IMG/VR virus record: IMGVR_UViG_2663762945_000005
Location: 1 to 4,320 of that record
Direction: 5' to 3' (one strand)
Length of the DNA: 4,320 nucleotides
Source of the DNA: a virus
Lineage: Duplodnaviria; Heunggongvirae; Uroviricota; Caudoviricetes
The position numbers were made by a program, and so were the translations under genes. Below, one piece after another: positions 1 through 4,320 of the stretch. The notes under the pieces were generated by a model. The model was given only the letters and a program-made list of their open reading frames with translations, was not told the origin of the DNA and ran no database searches. Position 1 is the stretch's first letter. Each line of letters opens with the position of its first letter.

Positions 1-92
1 AATTATCTTTAGTAATCACTAAACAAGCAAATACTTGACTTAATGGTTTATTAAACACTAAACTCACAAAAAAACACTAAACCGAGGAAGGT
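1..92 (+). promoter_or_regulatory. Putative early-right promoter/operator region upstream of the cro-like gene. Candidate -35 TTGACT (35-40), 18-nt spacer, candidate -10 TAAACT (59-64), RBS GAGGAAGG (84-91).
   Basis: AT-rich non-coding leader. TTGACT is a 5/6 match to the sigma70 -35 consensus and TAAACT a 4/6 match to -10, keeping the conserved T1, A2 and T6. Three direct copies of cactaaac (17-24, 56-63, 75-82; the last two extend to aaacactaaac at 53-63 and 72-82) lie in or beside the promoter elements. Imperfect palindrome tttagt-aatc-actaaa (8-23) and perfect palindrome gttta-t-taaac (46-56). Confidence 0.45.
8..23. promoter_or_regulatory. Candidate operator: 16-bp imperfect inverted repeat TTTAGT-aatc-ACTAAA.
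   Basis: The arms at 8-13 and 18-23 are exact reverse complements, separated by a 4-bp centre. It sits just upstream of the candidate -35, the usual place for a repressor operator in an immunity region. Confidence 0.35.
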
Positions 93-395
93 ATGACATT
101 AAAAGAGTTTATTAAATCATTAAGGGTTGGTGATGCTAAGAAATTCGCGGCCAGACTTGGTGTATCGCCATCTTACTTATCGCAAATGGCGTCTGGACGA
201 GCAGCTATATCTCCAACCCGCGCCCTTATGATCGAATCTGCGACGGAAGGCCAAGTAAGTAGGGTGGAGCTACGACCCCATGATTGGGAGCTTATTTGGC
301 CTGAGTATGCGAGCGGCATTCGTTTGGGGCAAACACATGTAGTTCATGCTGAAGGTGATTGTAGTGCATGCTTATCTGATGGAGTTGATTCATGA
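93..395 (+). CDS. Cro-like HTH transcriptional regulator (YdaS-family-like), 100 aa.
   Basis: ATG at 93 preceded by RBS GAGGAAGG. Predicted HTH segment AKKFAARLGVSPSYLSQMASGRAAISP. First gene of a rightward operon directly after an operator-like region; stop TGA overlaps the next gene's ATG (ATGA at 392-395). Confidence 0.7.
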   Translation: MTLKEFIKSLRVGDAKKFAARLGVSPSYLSQMASGRAAISPTRALMIESATEGQVSRVELRPHDWELIWPEYASGIRLGQTHVVHAEGDCSACLSDGVDS

Positions 396-817
396 AAATC
401 AAGCATGAACACATCCGCATGGCGATGAATGTCTGGGCGCATCCGGACGGCGAAAAAGTACCGGCTGCGAAAATTACCAAAGCGTATTTCGAGCTGGGAA
501 TGACGTTCCCGGAACTGTATGACGACAGCCATCCGGAAGCCCTGGCCCGTAATACCCAGAAAATTTTCCGTTGGCTGGATAAAGACACCCCTGATGCTGT
601 TGAAAAAATGCAGGCTCTGTTACCGGCGATCGAAAAGGCGATGCCGCCTTTGCTGGTGGCCCGTATGCGCAGCCACAGTTCTGAATATTACCGTGAGATC
701 GTCGAACGGAGGGATCGGCTGGTGAAGGATGTCGATGATTTTGTTGCGTCAGCGGTTGTTTTGTATGACCAGATGAATCGCGGCGGCCCGGCAGGGAATG
801 CTGTGGTGATGCACTAA
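392..817 (+). CDS. YdaT-family protein (CII-like regulator of Rac-type prophages), 141 aa.
   Basis: N-terminus MKIKHEHI matches my recollection of the E. coli Rac prophage YdaT N-terminus. RBS GGAG at 381-384. Translationally coupled to the upstream cro-like gene through the ATGA overlap. Position equals the cII slot. Confidence 0.7.
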   Translation: MKIKHEHIRMAMNVWAHPDGEKVPAAKITKAYFELGMTFPELYDDSHPEALARNTQKIFRWLDKDTPDAVEKMQALLPAIEKAMPPLLVARMRSHSSEYYREIVERRDRLVKDVDDFVASAVVLYDQMNRGGPAGNAVVMH

Positions 818-839
818 AAGCACGGTGTTCGGGGGTTTT

Positions 840-1802
840 ATGAGCAGCAAGCTTCATGGTCTTGTCTGGGAAGGGTGCGCCTTCACCGGCATGATCTTAT
901 CCAGGGTGGCGGTTATGGCCCGTCTTGCAGACTACAGCAATGACGAGGGTGTGTCATGGCCTGCCATTGAAACTATCCGGCGTCAGATCGGTGCAAGAAG
1001 TGAATCCACAGTGAAATCGGCTATTGCAGAACTGGCGAAAGAGGGCTGGCTGACGAAGGAAGAGCGTAAGGTCGGTGGGCGTAATGTAAGCAATATCTAT
1101 CGGCTTAATGTGGAAAAACTCGAAGCAGCTGCGGCGGCGGCGCGTGAGTCATATAAACCGAAAAGAAAAATTAGCCCGGCAAAAAATGACCCGTTAACAG
1201 TTGACCCGTCAAATATTGCCCCCTCAACGGTTGACCCGTCAAATTTTGATGGATCAACTGTTGATAAAAAACTGCCGATTAGGGGGGCGATGATTGACCC
1301 CGATCCGTCAGTATTAAAACCTGATCCATCAGATAAAAGATCTTCTTGTCCGGACGCTTCACAACCGGACCCGCAGACGGCTGAACAGGATTTTTTAACC
1401 CGACACCCTGACGCGGTTGTGTTCAGTGCGAAAAAACGCCAGTGGGGAAGTCAGGAAGATTTGGTGTGCGCACAGTGGATCTGGGGACGAATCGTGAGTC
1501 TTTACGAGCAGGCGGCCAGCGATGATGGCGAGATCACGAGACCGAAAGAACCCAACTGGACAGCATGGGCCAATGACGTTCGCACAATGCGGATGCTGGA
1601 TGGCAGAACTCACAGACAAATTTGTGAAATGTTTGGGCGTGTCCAGCGGGATTCGTTCTGGGTAAAAAACATCATGAGTCCGGGAAAACTCCGGGAAAAA
1701 TGGGATGAACTGGTTATCCGCCTGGGGTGTTCGCCTGCGCAACGTTGCGTGAATCACATTTCTGAACCGGACACTGAAATACCGCCGGGATTCAGGGGGT
1801 GA
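840..1802 (+). CDS. Phage replication initiator (lambda O-like): N-terminal winged-HTH DNA-binding domain, repetitive linker encoded by the iterons, C-terminal domain.
   Basis: N-terminal HTH-like segment ILSRVAVMARLADYSNDEGVSWPAIETIRRQIGARSESTVKSAIAELAKEGWLTKEE. The linker carries the repeated peptide TVDPSN, encoded by the DNA iterons. It lies directly upstream of a DnaC-like gene. I prefer ATG 840 (GGGGG at 831-835) over the ORF-track GTG at 825. Confidence 0.8.
   Translation: MSSKLHGLVWEGCAFTGMILSRVAVMARLADYSNDEGVSWPAIETIRRQIGARSESTVKSAIAELAKEGWLTKEERKVGGRNVSNIYRLNVEKLEAAAAAARESYKPKRKISPAKNDPLTVDPSNIAPSTVDPSNFDGSTVDKKLPIRGAMIDPDPSVLKPDPSDKRSSCPDASQPDPQTAEQDFLTRHPDAVVFSAKKRQWGSQEDLVCAQWIWGRIVSLYEQAASDDGEITRPKEPNWTAWANDVRTMRMLDGRTHRQICEMFGRVQRDSFWVKNIMSPGKLREKWDELVIRLGCSPAQRCVNHISEPDTEIPPGFRG
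1196..1342. repeat. Iteron array of a putative phage replication origin, embedded in the initiator gene: five repeats at about 30-bp (roughly three helical turns) spacing, with a GATC cluster.
   Basis: aacAgttgacccgtcaaat (1196-1214) and aacGgttgacccgtcaaat (1226-1244) match at 18 of 19 positions, with a perfect 14-bp core ttgacccgtcaaat. Degenerate copies: aactgttgat (1256-1265), ttgaccccgatccgtca (1294-1310), ctgatccatcaga (1321-1333). The core is near-palindromic (TTGAC..GTCAA). GATC at 1252, 1302, 1323 and 1339 gives four sites in 91 bp. Confidence 0.75.
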
Positions 1803-1808
1803 CGTGTC

Positions 1809-2555
1809 ATGAAAAACATTGCGGCAGTTGGGGTTCTTGAACGTATTCGCAGACTTGCACCACAGGGGGCGGTTCCACCGTACCGGACGGTGGAGGAGTG
1901 GCGGGAATGGCAACTTGCTGAAGGACGAAAACGCAGCGAGGAGATTAACCGCCAGAATCGCCAGTTGCGGGTGGAAAAAATCCTGAATCGTTCGGGCATT
2001 CAGCCTCTGCACAGCAAATGCTCGTTTGCAAATTATCAGGTGCAGAACGACGGGCAAAAATACGCGCTGAGCCAGGCCAAATCCATAGCTGACGAACTGA
2101 TGACCGGGTGCACGAATTTTGTGTTCAGCGGTAAAACCGGCACCGGGAAAAATCACCTTGCAGCGGCGATGGGCAACCGGCTGATGGTGAAGGGGCGCAG
2201 CGTGATTATCGTCACCGTTTCTGACGTCATGAGCGTGTTGCATGACAGCTACGACAACGGCAAATCCGGGGAAAAATTTTTACAGGAGCTTTGCGGGGTT
2301 GATTTGCTGGTCCTGGATGAAATAGGCGTTCAGCGGGAGACGAAAAACGAGCAGGTGGTATTGCACCAGATAATTGATCGCCGGACAGCATCACTGTGCA
2401 GTGTCGGGATGTTAACAAACCTGAATCATGCCGCAATGAGTACGCTTCTTGGTGAGAGGATTATGGACCGCATGACCATGAACGGTGGTCGATGGGTGAC
2501 GTTTAACTGGGATAGCTGGCGTCCAAATGTCAGCAATATGAGGGTTGTGAAGTAA
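1809..2555 (+). CDS. DnaC-type replicative helicase loader (phage P-analog, AAA+ ATPase), 248 aa.
   Basis: Walker A FSGKTGTGKNHLAAAMG (DnaC-type GTGKNHL). Walker B DLLVLDEIG (2301-2327). Sits immediately after the initiator gene, with ATG 7 nt past the upstream stop. Confidence 0.9.
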   Translation: MKNIAAVGVLERIRRLAPQGAVPPYRTVEEWREWQLAEGRKRSEEINRQNRQLRVEKILNRSGIQPLHSKCSFANYQVQNDGQKYALSQAKSIADELMTGCTNFVFSGKTGTGKNHLAAAMGNRLMVKGRSVIIVTVSDVMSVLHDSYDNGKSGEKFLQELCGVDLLVLDEIGVQRETKNEQVVLHQIIDRRTASLCSVGMLTNLNHAAMSTLLGERIMDRMTMNGGRWVTFNWDSWRPNVSNMRVVK

Positions 2556-2576
2556 TTTTGTTCGGAGGAAATTTTA

Positions 2577-3347
2577 ATGGAAACCGTATCTGACGCACTG
2601 AAAGCACTGAAAAAAGCCTCTTCACATGTGGTGGCAGCTCGCCTTGGAATCAGTCGTGAAGAGGCTGTCAACGAGCTGTGGGAACTCAAAAGAAATGGCG
2701 TCGTTGATAAAACTGGTCACACCTGGTTTCTGGCTGGCGAAGGTGAATCCCGGGTAACCGAAGAGCGGCCAGTAAAATCTGAAGCACAGGATATGCTGAC
2801 CGGGGAGGTCGAACAAAAAGTTACCGCAGACATGATGATTGAGTTTATCGGTCAGGATGGGGCTAAAACGTGTGAGGAACTGGCGGGTAAGTTCGGTGTC
2901 AGTACTCGCAAGGTTGCTTCCACGCTGGCGGTGGTAACCGCAACGGGGCGGCTGGCACGCGTTAATCAGAACGGTAAATTTCGTTACTGCATGCCGGGCG
3001 ATAATTTACCAGCAGAGCCGAAAGCCGCGCTGGTAACGGAAAGTGATGGTAAGGCCTTTCCTCAGCCAGCAGGTGCTGCGTTACCAGTCCGGGAAGCCGC
3101 AACACAGGAAAAAATTAAAACAGAAACTGTGGCGGACATTGTGCAGTCGTTGCCATCGTTTACCGAAACGCAAGCAGATGAGCTGATTTTTCCGTCCCTG
3201 CGCAGGGCAAACCTGGCGCTGCGCAGGGCGAAAAGTGATGTTCAGAAGTGGGAGCGAGTCTGCGCCGCGCTGCGGGAGCTGAACAAGCACCGGGATATTG
3301 TTCGACAGATTACTGATTCTTCCCGCCGTGTTGTATCGGAAAAGTGA
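2577..3347 (+). CDS. Hypothetical protein, 256 aa, with two tandem winged-helix-like segments, an Ala/Pro/Glu-rich linker and a C-terminal helical region.
   Basis: Strong RBS GGAGG (2564-2568) 8 nt before ATG 2577. Two segments of similar pattern, SSHVVAARLGISREEAVNELWELKRNGVVDKTGHTWFL and KTCEELAGKFGVSTRKVASTLAVVTATGRLARVNQNGKFRYCM. Codon usage matches the neighbouring genes. No function assignable from sequence. Confidence 0.7.
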   Translation: METVSDALKALKKASSHVVAARLGISREEAVNELWELKRNGVVDKTGHTWFLAGEGESRVTEERPVKSEAQDMLTGEVEQKVTADMMIEFIGQDGAKTCEELAGKFGVSTRKVASTLAVVTATGRLARVNQNGKFRYCMPGDNLPAEPKAALVTESDGKAFPQPAGAALPVREAATQEKIKTETVADIVQSLPSFTETQADELIFPSLRRANLALRRAKSDVQKWERVCAALRELNKHRDIVRQITDSSRRVVSEK

Positions 3348-3362
3348 TTGCCGGAGGCGCTT

Positions 3363-3785
3363 ATGGCAAAAGTATTTACACAAGAAGAGCGAGAAAAAAT
3401 TAAAGGGCAGGTTGTTGAGCTAGTACGCCGGAGTGGGCGCGAGACGTTACGGCAACTGGAAGCCAAGACAGGTGCGACAAGATATCTGATGAGCGTTCTT
3501 GCCAGAGAGCTGGTTGCCAGTGGCGATGTATACAACTCTGGTTACGGGTTATTCCCGTCTGAACAGGCTCGTAAGGACTGGCAAAATGCCCGCAAAAAAC
3601 TCTCAAGGGCAAAGGTGAAGAAACCTGCAGTGGTTGATCCGGACCTTATCTGGTCGTTACCAGACGGCGAAATACGCCGCTACGACAGGCGCCTAAACAT
3701 AATCTGTCGCGAGTGCCGGAAGAGTGAAGCTATGCAGCGTGTACTGGCTTTCTATCAGGGTAATTTTCAGGAGGCGGTACTGTGA
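3363..3785 (+). CDS. Hypothetical small protein, 140 aa, with an N-terminal HTH-like segment and a C-terminal CxxC motif.
   Basis: GGAGG (3353-3357) 5 nt upstream of ATG 3363, which I prefer to the ORF-track TTG at 3348. HTH-like ETLRQLEAKTGATRYLMSVLARELVASGDV; C-terminal IICRECRK. Stop TGA at 3783-3785. Confidence 0.65.
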   Translation: MAKVFTQEEREKIKGQVVELVRRSGRETLRQLEAKTGATRYLMSVLARELVASGDVYNSGYGLFPSEQARKDWQNARKKLSRAKVKKPAVVDPDLIWSLPDGEIRRYDRRLNIICRECRKSEAMQRVLAFYQGNFQEAVL

Positions 3786-3842
3786 GTGAAATTAGCTATC
3801 AGGCTTCAATTACCGCTGGCATTCGCATCAAAGGAGAGGAGC

Positions 3843-4199
3843 ATGGAAATAAAACCAGAGGATGAGTTAAGCAATATCGTTTTATTTCCGGTAAAAGAGG
3901 ATGACCCTCGTAATCAGGTTAATTTTCTTTATGAGCCATCGGAAAGACCATATTGCCATCACGCCTCTGTTCGGGTTGACGAAAAAGAGCGTCAGGTCCG
4001 CTGTAAAATCTGCGGTGCAGTTGTGGAGCCGTTTGACTGGATGCTCTCTGTGGCGAAAAGAGAAACCAGACTGGCAGATGATGTAAGGCTATTGCGCCAG
4101 GAGGAACAGGAAAGGCGGAAAAATATAGAAAAGTTAATTCAGATTGAGCGTAACGCGAAAGCGCGGATACGCAGGGCGACAAAATCCAGAACTGAATAA
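3843..4199 (+). CDS. Hypothetical small protein, 118 aa, with a putative zinc-binding motif and a basic C-terminal coiled coil.
   Basis: RBS AGGAG (3832-3836) 6 nt before ATG 3843. The alternative in-frame GTG at 3786 abuts the upstream stop but has a weaker 11-nt spacing to AGGAGG (3769-3774). Motif YCHH-x13-C-x2-C; C-terminus rich in R/K/E (LRQEEQERRKNIEKLIQIERNAKARIRR). Confidence 0.6.
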   Translation: MEIKPEDELSNIVLFPVKEDDPRNQVNFLYEPSERPYCHHASVRVDEKERQVRCKICGAVVEPFDWMLSVAKRETRLADDVRLLRQEEQERRKNIEKLIQIERNAKARIRRATKSRTE

Positions 4200-4249
4200 A
4201 TAAATTTAGCGCTGTAAATAAAATCTAATCCTTAACTGGAGGTATATTT

Positions 4250-4320
4250 ATGTTAAATACACAGAAAGCCATTAATGCGGAAAAATATAACGAGTGGGCA
4301 AGAAAATTCTCTGAGCAGAT
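4250..4320 (+). CDS. 5' end of a further hypothetical gene (MLNTQKAINAEKYNEWARKFSEQ...), truncated by the window edge.
   Basis: RBS CTGGAGGT (4237-4244) 5 nt upstream of ATG 4250. Open to the end of the window, same strand as the operon. Confidence 0.5.
   Translation, partial: MLNTQKAINAEKYNEWARKFSEQ

Follow-up and report, generated by a model that had tools for sequence, protein, structure and literature searches.

The bacteriophage lambda protein Ren (NP_040633) was reportedly defined genetically by Toothman and Herskowitz in 1980, through resistance to Rex exclusion. Its gene lies in the pR operon directly after the replication genes, in the order O-P-ren. In a two-hybrid assay, Ren was reported to interact with the Rex proteins, and the same source considers its involvement in replication likely (bioRxiv 10.1101/2021.04.19.439022). 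A second relevant locus is the Rac prophage of Escherichia coli K-12, with the gene order ydaS-ydaT-ydaU-ydaV-ydaW, in which YdaW is a truncated pseudogene product of the DUF1627 family. YdaW appears in a list of E. coli transcription factors whose function is unknown (PMC9308461), and the K-12 YdaW fragment is found among the prophage 'blockers' of retron-Sen2 RcaT toxicity obtained in an over-expression screen (bioRxiv 10.1101/2020.06.22.160242). This screen match is the sole functional hint for the DUF1627 family. A third point of reference is the set of small late-nin genes of lambdoid phages, which occupy the slot from ninG/rusA to Q.

Here we describe a block of three genes in a 4,320-nt stretch of viral DNA (positions 1 to 4,320 of IMG/VR record IMGVR_UViG_2663762945_000005; hereafter, the window), all features of which are given on the plus strand. 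The block lies downstream of a Rac-type operon, ydaS-ydaT-ydaU(O-like)-ydaV(DnaC-like). An initial annotation, made from the sequence alone, had singled it out as the best candidate in the window for an undescribed module. Our result in this respect is mainly negative, as the candidate dissolves into three very common, catalogued families, and the block is therefore no priority as a new system. We consider it fairly likely that it consists of three separately inherited accessory genes of the pR (early-right) operon of a Rac-type lambdoid prophage rather than of one system, the first gene being linked to the helicase loader, the second of the Ren type, and the third a stray gene of the nin/ea region.

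Gene calls and layout of the block

The DnaC-like helicase loader, a ydaV homologue that lies outside the block (1809..2555; NF009043, 1.3e-152; phrog_50, 8.5e-82), is followed after a gap of 21 nt by ORF1 (2577-3347, 256 aa), which has a GGAGG sequence at 2564-2568, 8 nt ahead of its ATG. ORF2 (ATG at 3363, end at 3785, 140 aa) begins 15 nt after ORF1 and has GGAGG at 3352-3356; ORF3 (ATG at 3843, end at 4199, 118 aa) begins 57 nt after ORF2 and is preceded by GGAGAGGAG at 3833-3841. The three genes are co-oriented, intact, and provided with good ribosome-binding sites, in agreement with their initial description as a co-oriented set behind a helicase loader. A start of ORF3 at GTG 3786, which would reduce the gap to zero, was rejected because homologues from other genera begin at the N-terminus of the 118-aa form. 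Identical starts have been annotated by RefSeq in an ST131 prophage that is 98.3% identical.

Profile matches rule out chance open reading frames, and ORF1, ORF2, and ORF3 are genuine genes. All three belong to already known, catalogued families that are common in Rac-like E. coli prophages, which bears out the caveat, attached to the initial annotation, that genes of this kind frequently turn out to encode conserved phage proteins without a known role. NCBIfam contains no family for ORF2 or ORF3, and a sequence search of all PDB chains with the three proteins yielded nothing below E=0.07. No significant match was found to the defence models of PADLOC-DB, where ORF2 had no match at all and the weak hits were at the level of the winged helix only (Csa3/CARF, 1e-3; MTase, 0.03).

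At the nucleotide level, no promoter-like or terminator-like site was detected inside the block, the base-composition profile showed no sharp boundary, and Rfam gave no match at E<=0.1 over the whole window. A repeat search in and around the block found no operator-like repeats, the only repeats being the ori iterons at 1196-1262, within the O-like gene.

ORF1 is a full-length YdaW inherited with the DnaC-like loader

ORF1 (2577..3347) matched PF07789 (DUF1627) with an E-value of 2.9e-98 and 326.4 bits (cut-off 28.1), covering profile positions 1-155 of 155, and phrog_630 with 5.4e-133. Over the 150 aa retained in K-12, it shares 55% identity with the Rac ydaW fragment, and its position after ydaV corresponds to the Rac gene order. 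These matches and the synteny identify ORF1 as a full-length member of the YdaW/DUF1627 family, whereas the K-12 pseudogene lacks the linker and the C-terminal helices.

The AlphaFold2 model of ORF1 (mean pLDDT 80.8) comprises two confident winged helices (residues 1-53 and 81-140; pLDDT >94), which had been anticipated as two tandem winged-helix-like segments, and a long C-terminal helix. Winged helix 1 (aa 1-53; 2577..2735; H4-11, H16-23, H27-39, E43-46, E49-52; pLDDT 94-97) has an acidic third helix, REEAVNELWELKR; residues 18-48 weakly match HTH_Crp_2, and L34 and W50 are invariant across 36 diverse homologues. Winged helix 2 (aa 81-140; 2817..2996; H84-94, H99-106, H110-122, E127-131, E134-138; pLDDT 95-97) is of the ArsR/MarR/Ren type, with STRKVASTL as its third helix and profile matches that include HTH_PafC, HTH_11, and FeoC. 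Both winged helices are contained in the K-12 fragment of the retron screen. The C-terminal region is modelled as two long basic helices (aa 208-255; 3198..3341; H208-237 and H239-255, pLDDT 88-96), with the conserved motif EIRRTKxxLxxLExLR and an invariant R216; this segment also occurs on its own as phrog_1888 and phrog_29124. Judging from the model, the C-terminal helices probably serve in oligomerisation or partner binding.

Fold searches returned generic tandem winged helices, and the top structural matches to the two-winged-helix part were the tandem winged-helix adaptors ScpB, the SelB C-terminus, ESCRT-II, and DDRGK1/UFL1, in several of which the winged helices bind protein or RNA and not operator DNA; MarR and ArsR regulators were also among the matches. 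The resemblance to the adaptors is at the level of the fold only (9-18% identity, TM ~0.2) and implies no homology; the TM value is low because the linkers are flexible. Unlike the adaptors, ORF1 has a disordered linker of ~27 residues between its winged helices and a long helix after them.

The neighbourhood of ORF1 homologues points upstream. The DnaC-like gene abuts ORF1 in 46 of the 51 close loci, and it also abuts the ORF1 homologue in 33/41 loci of a clade ~28% identical to ORF1, in which the gene downstream differs nearly every time. In identity to the window, the DnaC-like gene co-varies with ORF1. Prophage L195 is 99% identical over positions 1-1800 of the window, after which 1800 joins 3353, so that dnaC and ORF1 behave as one indel, and the two genes are absent as a single 1.55-kb cassette from near-identical prophages. 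A further 19 ORF2-anchored loci (14 with full flanks) carry an O-like gene and ORF2 but lack both dnaC and ORF1. DUF1627/YdaW and the phage DnaC-like loader are thus acquired and lost as a pair. ORF1 is nevertheless facultative and not tied to one loader type, because the DnaC-like gene stands directly ahead of ORF2 without ORF1 in loci L241-L244, and in PPompW phages the gene upstream of DUF1627 is a lambda-P-like loader. A search of IMG/VR with two divergent DUF1627 representatives gave no match.

From this linkage we infer that ORF1 may act together with the replication module; for example, winged helix 2 could bind DNA, while winged helix 1 and the C-terminal helix, which probably drives oligomerisation, could bind the loader, the O-some, or another partner. 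A role as an ordinary MarR/ArsR-like phage transcription regulator of downstream delayed-early or host genes, with no link to replication, seems decidedly unlikely to us. The recognition-helix pattern of winged helix 2 is classically ArsR/MarR-like, the weak matches extend to HTH_11, PafC, FeoC, MntR, and ArsR, and regulators appear both among the fold matches and in the published listing of YdaW (PMC9308461). Against this, every HTH family score of ORF1 lies under its curated cut-off, there are no conserved operator-like repeats or promoters near the gene, and it is the upstream loader that is conserved while the downstream gene is hypervariable.

ORF2 is related by sequence to lambda Ren

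ORF2 (3363..3785) matched PF06163 (DUF977; 1.5e-29, 103.2 bits, cut-off 22.1) over profile positions 1-134 of 134. The link to a characterised protein came from phrog_142, annotated as 'Ren-like exclusion protein', which is matched both by ORF2 (4.2e-48) and by lambda Ren (1.6e-41). Residues 112-131 of ORF2 (3696..3755), NIICRECRKSEAMQRVLAFY, form a C-terminal Ren signature of which 12/20 positions are identical to residues 73-92 of lambda Ren (BLASTP, E=4e-7), and N112, E117, C118, R119, S121, M124, R126, L128, and Y131 are invariant in the family alignment (A4). Both proteins have an N-terminal winged helix and the C-terminal motif ECRxSxAMxRVLAxY. They differ in length, ORF2 having 140 aa against 96 in Ren, and a basic insert of ~35 aa separates the winged helix of ORF2 from its motif. 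In the alignment the two are ~30% identical overall, and lambda Ren itself reaches no Pfam DUF977 match at E<=1. By sequence, proteins annotated as DUF977 or 'LygF' are long-form relatives of lambda Ren.

The genomic position is likewise that of Ren, immediately behind the replication genes of the pR operon, with the difference that ORF2 follows an O-like/DnaC-like module and lambda ren follows O/P. In all anchored loci, ORF2 lies behind an O-like, DnaC-like, or DUF1627 gene. The placement of the block in a ren/nin-proximal slot thus proved apt, and homology to a characterised gene of that slot, together with the identity of ORF1 as Rac YdaW/DUF1627, speaks against an undescribed module.

The HTH-like N-terminus and CxxC ascribed to ORF2 are both present, as a winged HTH and as C115 and C118. 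A zinc site at the CxxC was considered and rejected, there being just two cysteines, of which only C118 is kept in lambda Ren and the first is replaced by Phe; the motif is probably not a metal site. The name 'LygF' was also discarded as a functional label, since it is merely a locus name inherited from annotation, presumably from a Salmonella Enteritidis-specific region. A literature search for it retrieved solely Salmonella genome announcements and unrelated papers on lysozyme g.

Winged helix 2 of ORF1 shows some similarity to this family. Residues 84-137 matched phrog_142 with 6.2e-6, and an hhalign comparison of winged helix 2 with the ORF2/Ren profile gave E=2e-4 at 47% probability; direct BLASTP of ORF1 against ORF2 was not significant. 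Because the profile comparison reaches only this probability and BLASTP is not significant, paralogy of ORF1 and ORF2 is not claimed.

By analogy with Ren, ORF2 would be a small protein with a winged helix whose task is to shield early replication from abortive exclusion of the Rex type, or to modulate replication in the face of it, probably by contacting other proteins. An extension of this idea to both genes would make ORF1 and ORF2 counter-defence proteins and not replication accessories, that is, Ren-type winged-helix decoys that block the sensing of phage replication, or the response to it, by abortive-infection systems of the Rex-like or retron type. We regard this as possible but unlikely. 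It draws on the reported genetic definition of Ren, on the weak resemblance of the ORF1 and Ren winged helices, and on the use of the same post-loader slot by DUF1627 and Ren-like genes, either of which can occur alone. The published data that favour it are the contact of Ren with Rex proteins (bioRxiv 10.1101/2021.04.19.439022) and the listing of the YdaW fragment as an RcaT 'blocker' (bioRxiv 10.1101/2020.06.22.160242). However, the retron screen concerned a truncated protein with 55% identity to ORF1, ORF1 travels with the loader gene instead of with variable cargo, and the winged-helix similarity stands at the 47% probability given above.

A bolder form of the proposal, which we think rather improbable, is that a single unrecognised 'post-loader' class of winged-helix counter-defence proteins exists in two versions, YdaW/DUF1627 and the Ren-like protein, which mask replication proteins or intermediates from sensors of the Rex-like and retron-Sen2 type. 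Such a class would explain the interchangeable slot, the RcaT block by the YdaW fragment, and the Ren-Rex contact and, if real, would be the reason why these genes sit beside phage replication genes. Our preferred reading keeps the two genes apart, with ORF1 belonging to the loader and ORF2 to the Ren type.

ORF3 belongs to the phrog_1621 family

ORF3 (3843..4199) matched phrog_1621 with 1.5e-56 over residues 1-117, and its homologues form 150 clusters, all from Enterobacterales and all unnamed. The model (mean pLDDT 74.5) has a disordered N-terminus, a small predicted zinc ribbon, and a long basic helix. The CHH/CxxC motif and basic coiled coil of the initial annotation find their counterparts in C38, H40, C54, and C57, which are invariant in 28 sequences of 44-73% identity, and in a single helix spanning residues 63-117 (4029..4193; pLDDT 81-95), which has 17 invariant positions within L84-R110 and a near-invariant basic end, IEKLIQIERNAKARIRR. 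The putative zinc-ribbon knuckles C38-x-H40 and C54-x2-C57 (3954..4013) flank a modelled hairpin of strands 43-46 and 51-54, as in the generic zinc-ribbon pattern. The match to the TFIIB-type zinc ribbon PF08271 (21.5 bits, below the cut-off of 29) is a resemblance only, and Foldseek against the PDB gave generic zinc-ribbon matches only, with the TFIIB B-ribbon 1pft on top (E=0.28).

Conservation also bears on the proposal that ORF1, ORF2, and ORF3 are decaying relics of a cryptic prophage and no longer serve a function. K-12 ydaW is truncated, ORF2 is interrupted by a stop codon in its ST131 copy, and many database entries are fragments; all the same, we consider decay extremely improbable. 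The three genes are intact in the window and have strong ribosome-binding sites, even at identities as low as 22-45%, homologues from different genera all retain W50 and R216 in ORF1 and, in ORF3, the helix and the zinc ligands, and the genes are also found in inducible or sequenced phages.

ORF3 lies in a mobile cassette (3815..4320), together with the start of a 70-aa gene at 4250, which shares 99.0% identity over 506 nt with the Stx2a phage ArgO145. The 70-aa product was read in L195, and the ArgO145 copy matches phrog_4659. In ArgO145, the cassette is part of the early-left operon, downstream of an Ea22-like gene. In a Klebsiella phage, the homologue of ORF3 directly follows NinG. The same arrangement was found in 7/12 non-Escherichia genomes; in one of the 12 the homologue follows RusA, and in another an HNH gene that itself follows NinG. 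No Ren-like gene was present in the flanks of the non-Escherichia loci. Outside Escherichia, the phrog_1621 gene normally neighbours ninG or rusA, exactly in the slot of the small late-nin genes, where it often abuts the NinG stop codon, although ORF3 has no detectable similarity to named nin proteins. It has moved behind the Ren-like gene in the window, and the Stx2a phages have it in the ea22 region. ORF3 can thus be described as a wandering gene of the nin or ea region, and its zinc-ribbon and coiled-coil-like helix would suit a small oligomeric factor that binds nucleic acid or protein and acts independently of ORF1 and ORF2.

Mosaic inheritance of the three genes

The initial annotation had proposed that the three genes might be exclusion, anti-defence, or host-takeover cargo placed after the replication genes, and a single module of three co-functioning proteins would accord with several features: the genes share one orientation, lie close together, and have neither a promoter nor a terminator inside the block, all three proteins are predicted to bind nucleic acid or protein, the contiguous triple recurs in the anchored sets, and most of the block is present in 205 complete genomes. 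The distribution of the genes nevertheless already largely refutes this reading, which we hold to be very improbable, and no defence match in PADLOC supports it.

In the phage collection, ORF1 and ORF2 were each found in 24 records, and 21 records had ORF3. ORF1 and ORF2 shared 12 records, ORF2 and ORF3 shared 4, and ORF1 and ORF3 none; all three were together in 0 of 50,697 phage records. Among anchored IMG/VR loci, counted where at least 3 kb of flank was available on both sides, ORF1 was adjacent to ORF2 in 27 of the 52 anchored on ORF2, ORF3 was adjacent in 21, and all three were contiguous in 4. The 47 loci anchored on ORF3 had ORF2 adjacent in 22 cases and ORF1 present in 16. Over the three anchored sets, the contiguous triple occurred in 2, 4, and 8 loci. 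Some part of the block is present in 4624 of 5426 complete E. coli genomes, and at least 80% of it lies in one place in 205.

Identity patterns place recombination joints at ORF1|ORF2 and at ORF2|ORF3. ORF1 at 98-99% identity pairs with ORF2 at 53-99%, and ORF3 is 98-100% identical irrespective of the preceding gene. The dnaC+ORF1 pair and ORF3 are separate indels among prophages that are otherwise 99% identical, and in the closest E. coli relative ORF2 is a pseudogene and four other genes lie between ORF2 and ORF3. Each gene is also found apart from the others: DUF1627 occurs without a Ren-like gene in the PPompW phages and in a divergent clade, roughly half of the anchored loci have the Ren-like gene but no DUF1627, and ORF3 resides in other operons, beside Ea22, NinG, or RusA. 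The co-occurrence and adjacency across diverged relatives and backbones that would mark a multi-gene module were not observed. As these are catalogued genes that phages shuffle independently, the block is not a new three-gene system.

For those who study lambdoid prophages, the useful outcomes are the linkage of YdaW to the loader, the kinship of DUF977 with Ren, and the usual ninG/rusA neighbourhood of phrog_1621. DUF1627, DUF977, and phrog_1621 are found in the majority of E. coli genomes, and each could be assayed cheaply, as a well-defined target, for a part in replication or anti-exclusion.

Among close relatives, ORF2 follows ORF1 in 51/51 loci, all of them copies from a single lineage at 98-100% identity, within which ORF1 and ORF2 may form a functional pair.

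Prophage setting of the three genes

The window, 4320 bases long, comes from a Rac-type lambdoid E. coli prophage and is its early-right operon. Its closest match, a prophage of ST131 strains with 98.3% identity across 98% of the window, is flanked by integrase/excisionase/dicB genes and by RusA/DUF1133 genes. The first gene encodes a Cro of YdaS type (93-395) and the second a YdaT/CII-like protein (392-817); they are followed by an O-like initiator (840-1802) and, directly before the three-gene block (2577-4199), a DnaC-like helicase loader (1809-2555), the same order as racR/ydaS-ydaT-ydaU-ydaV-ydaW in the K-12 Rac prophage. Although the two genes at 93-817 have Pfam matches to YdaS and YdaT, both 'toxin' families, PHROGs groups them with repressor/Cro-like and CII-like regulators; 'toxin' as an annotated name is probably misleading here. 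Within the O-like gene, iteron-like repeats at 1196-1262 (TTGACCCGTCAAAT...) make up an imperfect inverted repeat of 33 nt, very likely the phage replication origin, and lambda O likewise harbours its origin within the initiator gene. The extreme C-terminus of the O-like protein (its residues 300-320) weakly matches the C-terminus of primosomal protein DnaT (NF002770, E=0.004) and phrog_11896 'primosomal protein', which hints at a possible route for recruiting a DnaC-type loader.

The three genes, ORF1 (2577-3347, 256 aa), ORF2 (3363-3785, 140 aa counted from ATG), and ORF3 (3843-4199, 118 aa counted from ATG), lie on the plus strand and are present as described in the initial annotation. Each has its own ribosome-binding site, a GGAGG-type Shine-Dalgarno sequence, and the upstream gaps are 21, 15, and 57 nt, respectively. 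Their starts are identical in the RefSeq annotation of the ST131 relative, and the N-terminus of ORF3 is the same in homologues from other genera. Because the profile E-values are so low (2.9e-98, 1.5e-29, and 1.5e-56, respectively), these are without doubt genuine genes. By sequence, all three proteins are members of already catalogued families, with database protein clusters 96-98% identical to them that hold hundreds to thousands of member sequences; that they are decaying junk is extremely improbable, even if the ORF2 homologue of the closest E. coli relative, a DUF977/Ren-like gene, is a pseudogene with an internal stop. Since no promoter-like or terminator-like site was found within the block, the genes are read within the pR transcript; no Rfam family was found there either.

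The three genes do not form a module

Four agreeing lines of evidence, from a phage collection, IMG/VR loci, E. coli genomes, and patterns of identity and indels, demonstrate that the three genes are not a module. They count against the undescribed three-gene module proposed initially, a reading to which we now give very little probability. In the phage collection, ORF1 and ORF2 were each present in 24 records and ORF3 in 21; 12 records had both ORF1 and ORF2, 4 had both ORF2 and ORF3, and no record held ORF1 together with ORF3, or all three. IMG/VR loci were compared with each gene as the anchor, provided that the flanks reached 3 kb or more on either side. Of the 52 ORF2 loci, 27 had ORF1 upstream, 14 had an O-like gene as the immediate upstream neighbour, and 21 had ORF3 directly downstream; ORF2 was adjacent in 22 of the 47 ORF3 loci. 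The three anchored sets contained contiguous ORF1-ORF2-ORF3 at only 2, 4, and 8 loci. Some part of the block was found in 4624 of 5426 complete E. coli genomes, and at least 80% of it at one place in only 205 of the 5426, a count that takes in copies interrupted by other genes. In the closest E. coli relative (Ecol_745, ST131; 9363-11107), four small genes, one of them DUF4014, separate the homologues of ORF2 and ORF3.

ORF1 at 98-99% identity is paired with ORF2 at anywhere from 53 to 99%, and ORF3 is 98-100% identical regardless of the upstream sequence. A prophage 99% identical to window 1-1800 (L195) passes directly from 1800 to 3353 and, further on, from 3800 to 4180, so that dnaC plus ORF1 constitute one 1.55-kb indel and ORF3 another; exactly 1801-3352 and 3801-4179 are missing, as two clean cassette indels. 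An O-like gene with ORF2 and without dnaC and ORF1 was seen in 19 ORF2-anchored loci (14 with full flanks). Across prophages the genes were thus found unlinked, ORF3 also occurring in Ea22 and NinG/RusA settings. The block does not qualify as a conserved module, and none of the three genes significantly matched a PADLOC-DB defence-system model. It is no new system and is of low interest: the initial annotation correctly described what are ordinary mosaic prophage accessory genes.

ORF1, a YdaW/DUF1627 protein encoded next to the helicase loader

ORF1 is assigned to YdaW/DUF1627, matching PF07789 across the entire model and phrog_630 across its entire length, with 55% identity to the 150-aa fragment retained in the K-12 ydaW pseudogene. 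At the 50% identity level this small family numbers 152 clusters in a set of 1.84 billion representatives, and many of the clusters are fragments. An AlphaFold2 model built with 36 diverse full-length homologues of 22-66% identity (mean pLDDT 80.8) predicts a winged helix (residues 1-53), an acidic disordered linker, another winged helix (81-140), a long disordered linker rich in Pro and Ala with a conserved S-[IL]-P-x-F-T motif, and two long basic helices (208-255), bearing out the two tandem winged-helix-like segments noticed at first. Fold searches yielded only generic tandem winged-helix proteins (ScpB, SelB, ESCRT-II, DDRGK1), MarR/ArsR regulators, and uncharacterised phage proteins. The second winged helix has the usual ArsR/MarR-type recognition-helix pattern, and the third helix of the first reads as acidic, which would fit protein binding. 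An ordinary transcription regulator is an unlikely reading.

ORF1 goes together with the helicase loader: it is directly adjoined by a DnaC-like gene in 46 of 51 close loci, and in 33 of 41 loci of a DUF1627 clade only ~28% identical to it. In this divergent clade the remaining upstream genes are other replication genes, the downstream gene is nearly always different, and no Ren-like gene was detectable with a profile that does detect lambda Ren. The DUF1627 of PPompW phages, 62% identical, lies after a lambda-P-like loader, and no Ren-like neighbour was found. Because DnaC-like genes can directly precede ORF2, as in four loci (L241-L244), ORF1 is a facultative accessory. Within the replication module it probably serves as an accessory associated with the loader; its second winged helix would contact DNA and the first, with the C-terminal helices, would serve partner binding or oligomerisation.

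In IMG/VR loci L262-L299, ~190 nt downstream of the divergent DUF1627 genes, there is a conserved non-coding spacer, and the otherwise unrelated ORFs downstream all appear to start with a common 'MERVSGGK'-like leader, suggesting that the edge of the replication module carries a conserved element, either a junction or a regulatory one (terminator, promoter, or recombination site).

ORF2, a long homologue of Ren

From its sequence and position, ORF2 is identified as a long-form Ren homologue. Its matches are PF06163 (DUF977) and, at 4.2e-48, phrog_142 "Ren-like exclusion protein", which lambda Ren (from NC_001416) matches at 1.6e-41. Compared directly, the C-terminal motifs of ORF2 (NIICRECRKSEAMQRVLAFY) and lambda Ren (NLVFKECRQSAAMKRVLAVY) are identical at 12 of 20 positions (E=4e-7), and a joint alignment matches both this motif and the N-terminal winged helix; ORF2 differs in an additional basic segment of ~35 residues. 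The helix-turn-helix-like N-terminus noted initially thus holds, but the CxxC reported with it is not conserved, its first Cys being Phe in lambda Ren, and is probably no metal site. Phage records name such proteins "LygF" (a locus name carrying no function), "YdaW family", or "Ren-like". Lambda ren lies directly downstream of O and P (NC_001416), and ORF2 occupies the same position, after whichever replication genes are there. Rex exclusion reportedly acts on ren mutants, which are sensitive.

ORF2 would probably work in a Ren-like mode, as a small winged-helix protein modulating or protecting early replication against Rex-type abortive exclusion, probably via protein contacts. Lambda Ren has been described as "likely involved in DNA replication", and reported two-hybrid contacts link the Rex proteins with O and Ren (bioRxiv 10.1101/2021.04.19.439022). 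The contact with Ren also speaks for the main rival, in which ORF1 and ORF2 would both serve in counter-defence, as does the K-12 YdaW fragment, which an over-expression screen lists as one of the prophage "blockers" of RcaT toxicity from retron-Sen2 (bioRxiv 10.1101/2020.06.22.160242). We consider this rival improbable, though likelier than a transcription regulator, a true module, or junk.

ORF3, a wandering zinc-ribbon/helix protein

ORF3 is a predicted zinc-ribbon/helix protein of phrog_1621, a PHROG without known function, with 150 homologue clusters, all unnamed. Among species-representative genomes the family is confined to Enterobacterales (Escherichia/Shigella, Kluyvera, Erwinia, Photorhabdus, Pantoea, Yersinia, Phytobacter, Leclercia, and Enterobacter). 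The Cys/His and CxxC motif recognized at the outset proved invariant (C38, H40, C54, C57), together with a C-terminal helix stretch (IEKLIQIERNAKARIRR), across homologues of 44-73% identity. In the model (pLDDT 74.5), a disordered N-terminus is followed by a small beta-hairpin ribbon and then by one helix (63-117). Its sole structural resemblance was to the TFIIB B-ribbon (E=0.28); ORF3 scored under the cut-off for PF08271 and does not qualify as a TFIIB-ribbon member.

ORF3 is a wanderer among phage positions. Window 3815-4320 is 99% identical over 506 nt to the early-left operon of Stx2a phage ArgO145 (3973-4478 of that locus), where the gene comes after an Ea22-like gene. In a Klebsiella phage, as in 7 of 12 non-Escherichia genomes, it immediately follows NinG, often abutting the NinG stop codon, and lies ahead of YlcG/Q; in one further non-Escherichia genome it follows RusA, and in another a NinG-following HNH gene. 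As a probable zinc-ribbon oligomer, ORF3 would bind nucleic acid or protein and act alone, with a historical association with junction nucleases.

The segment common to the window and ArgO145 includes the start (4250) of a 70-aa phrog_4659 gene extending past the window. E. coli-type ORF3 or DUF1627 also appeared at 78-98% identity in records of unrelated hosts, namely a Collinsella MAG (L245), an Ursidibacter contig (L250), and Actinobacillus phage vB_Apl-pPE4 (PP818812), which probably reflects contamination or host misassignment.
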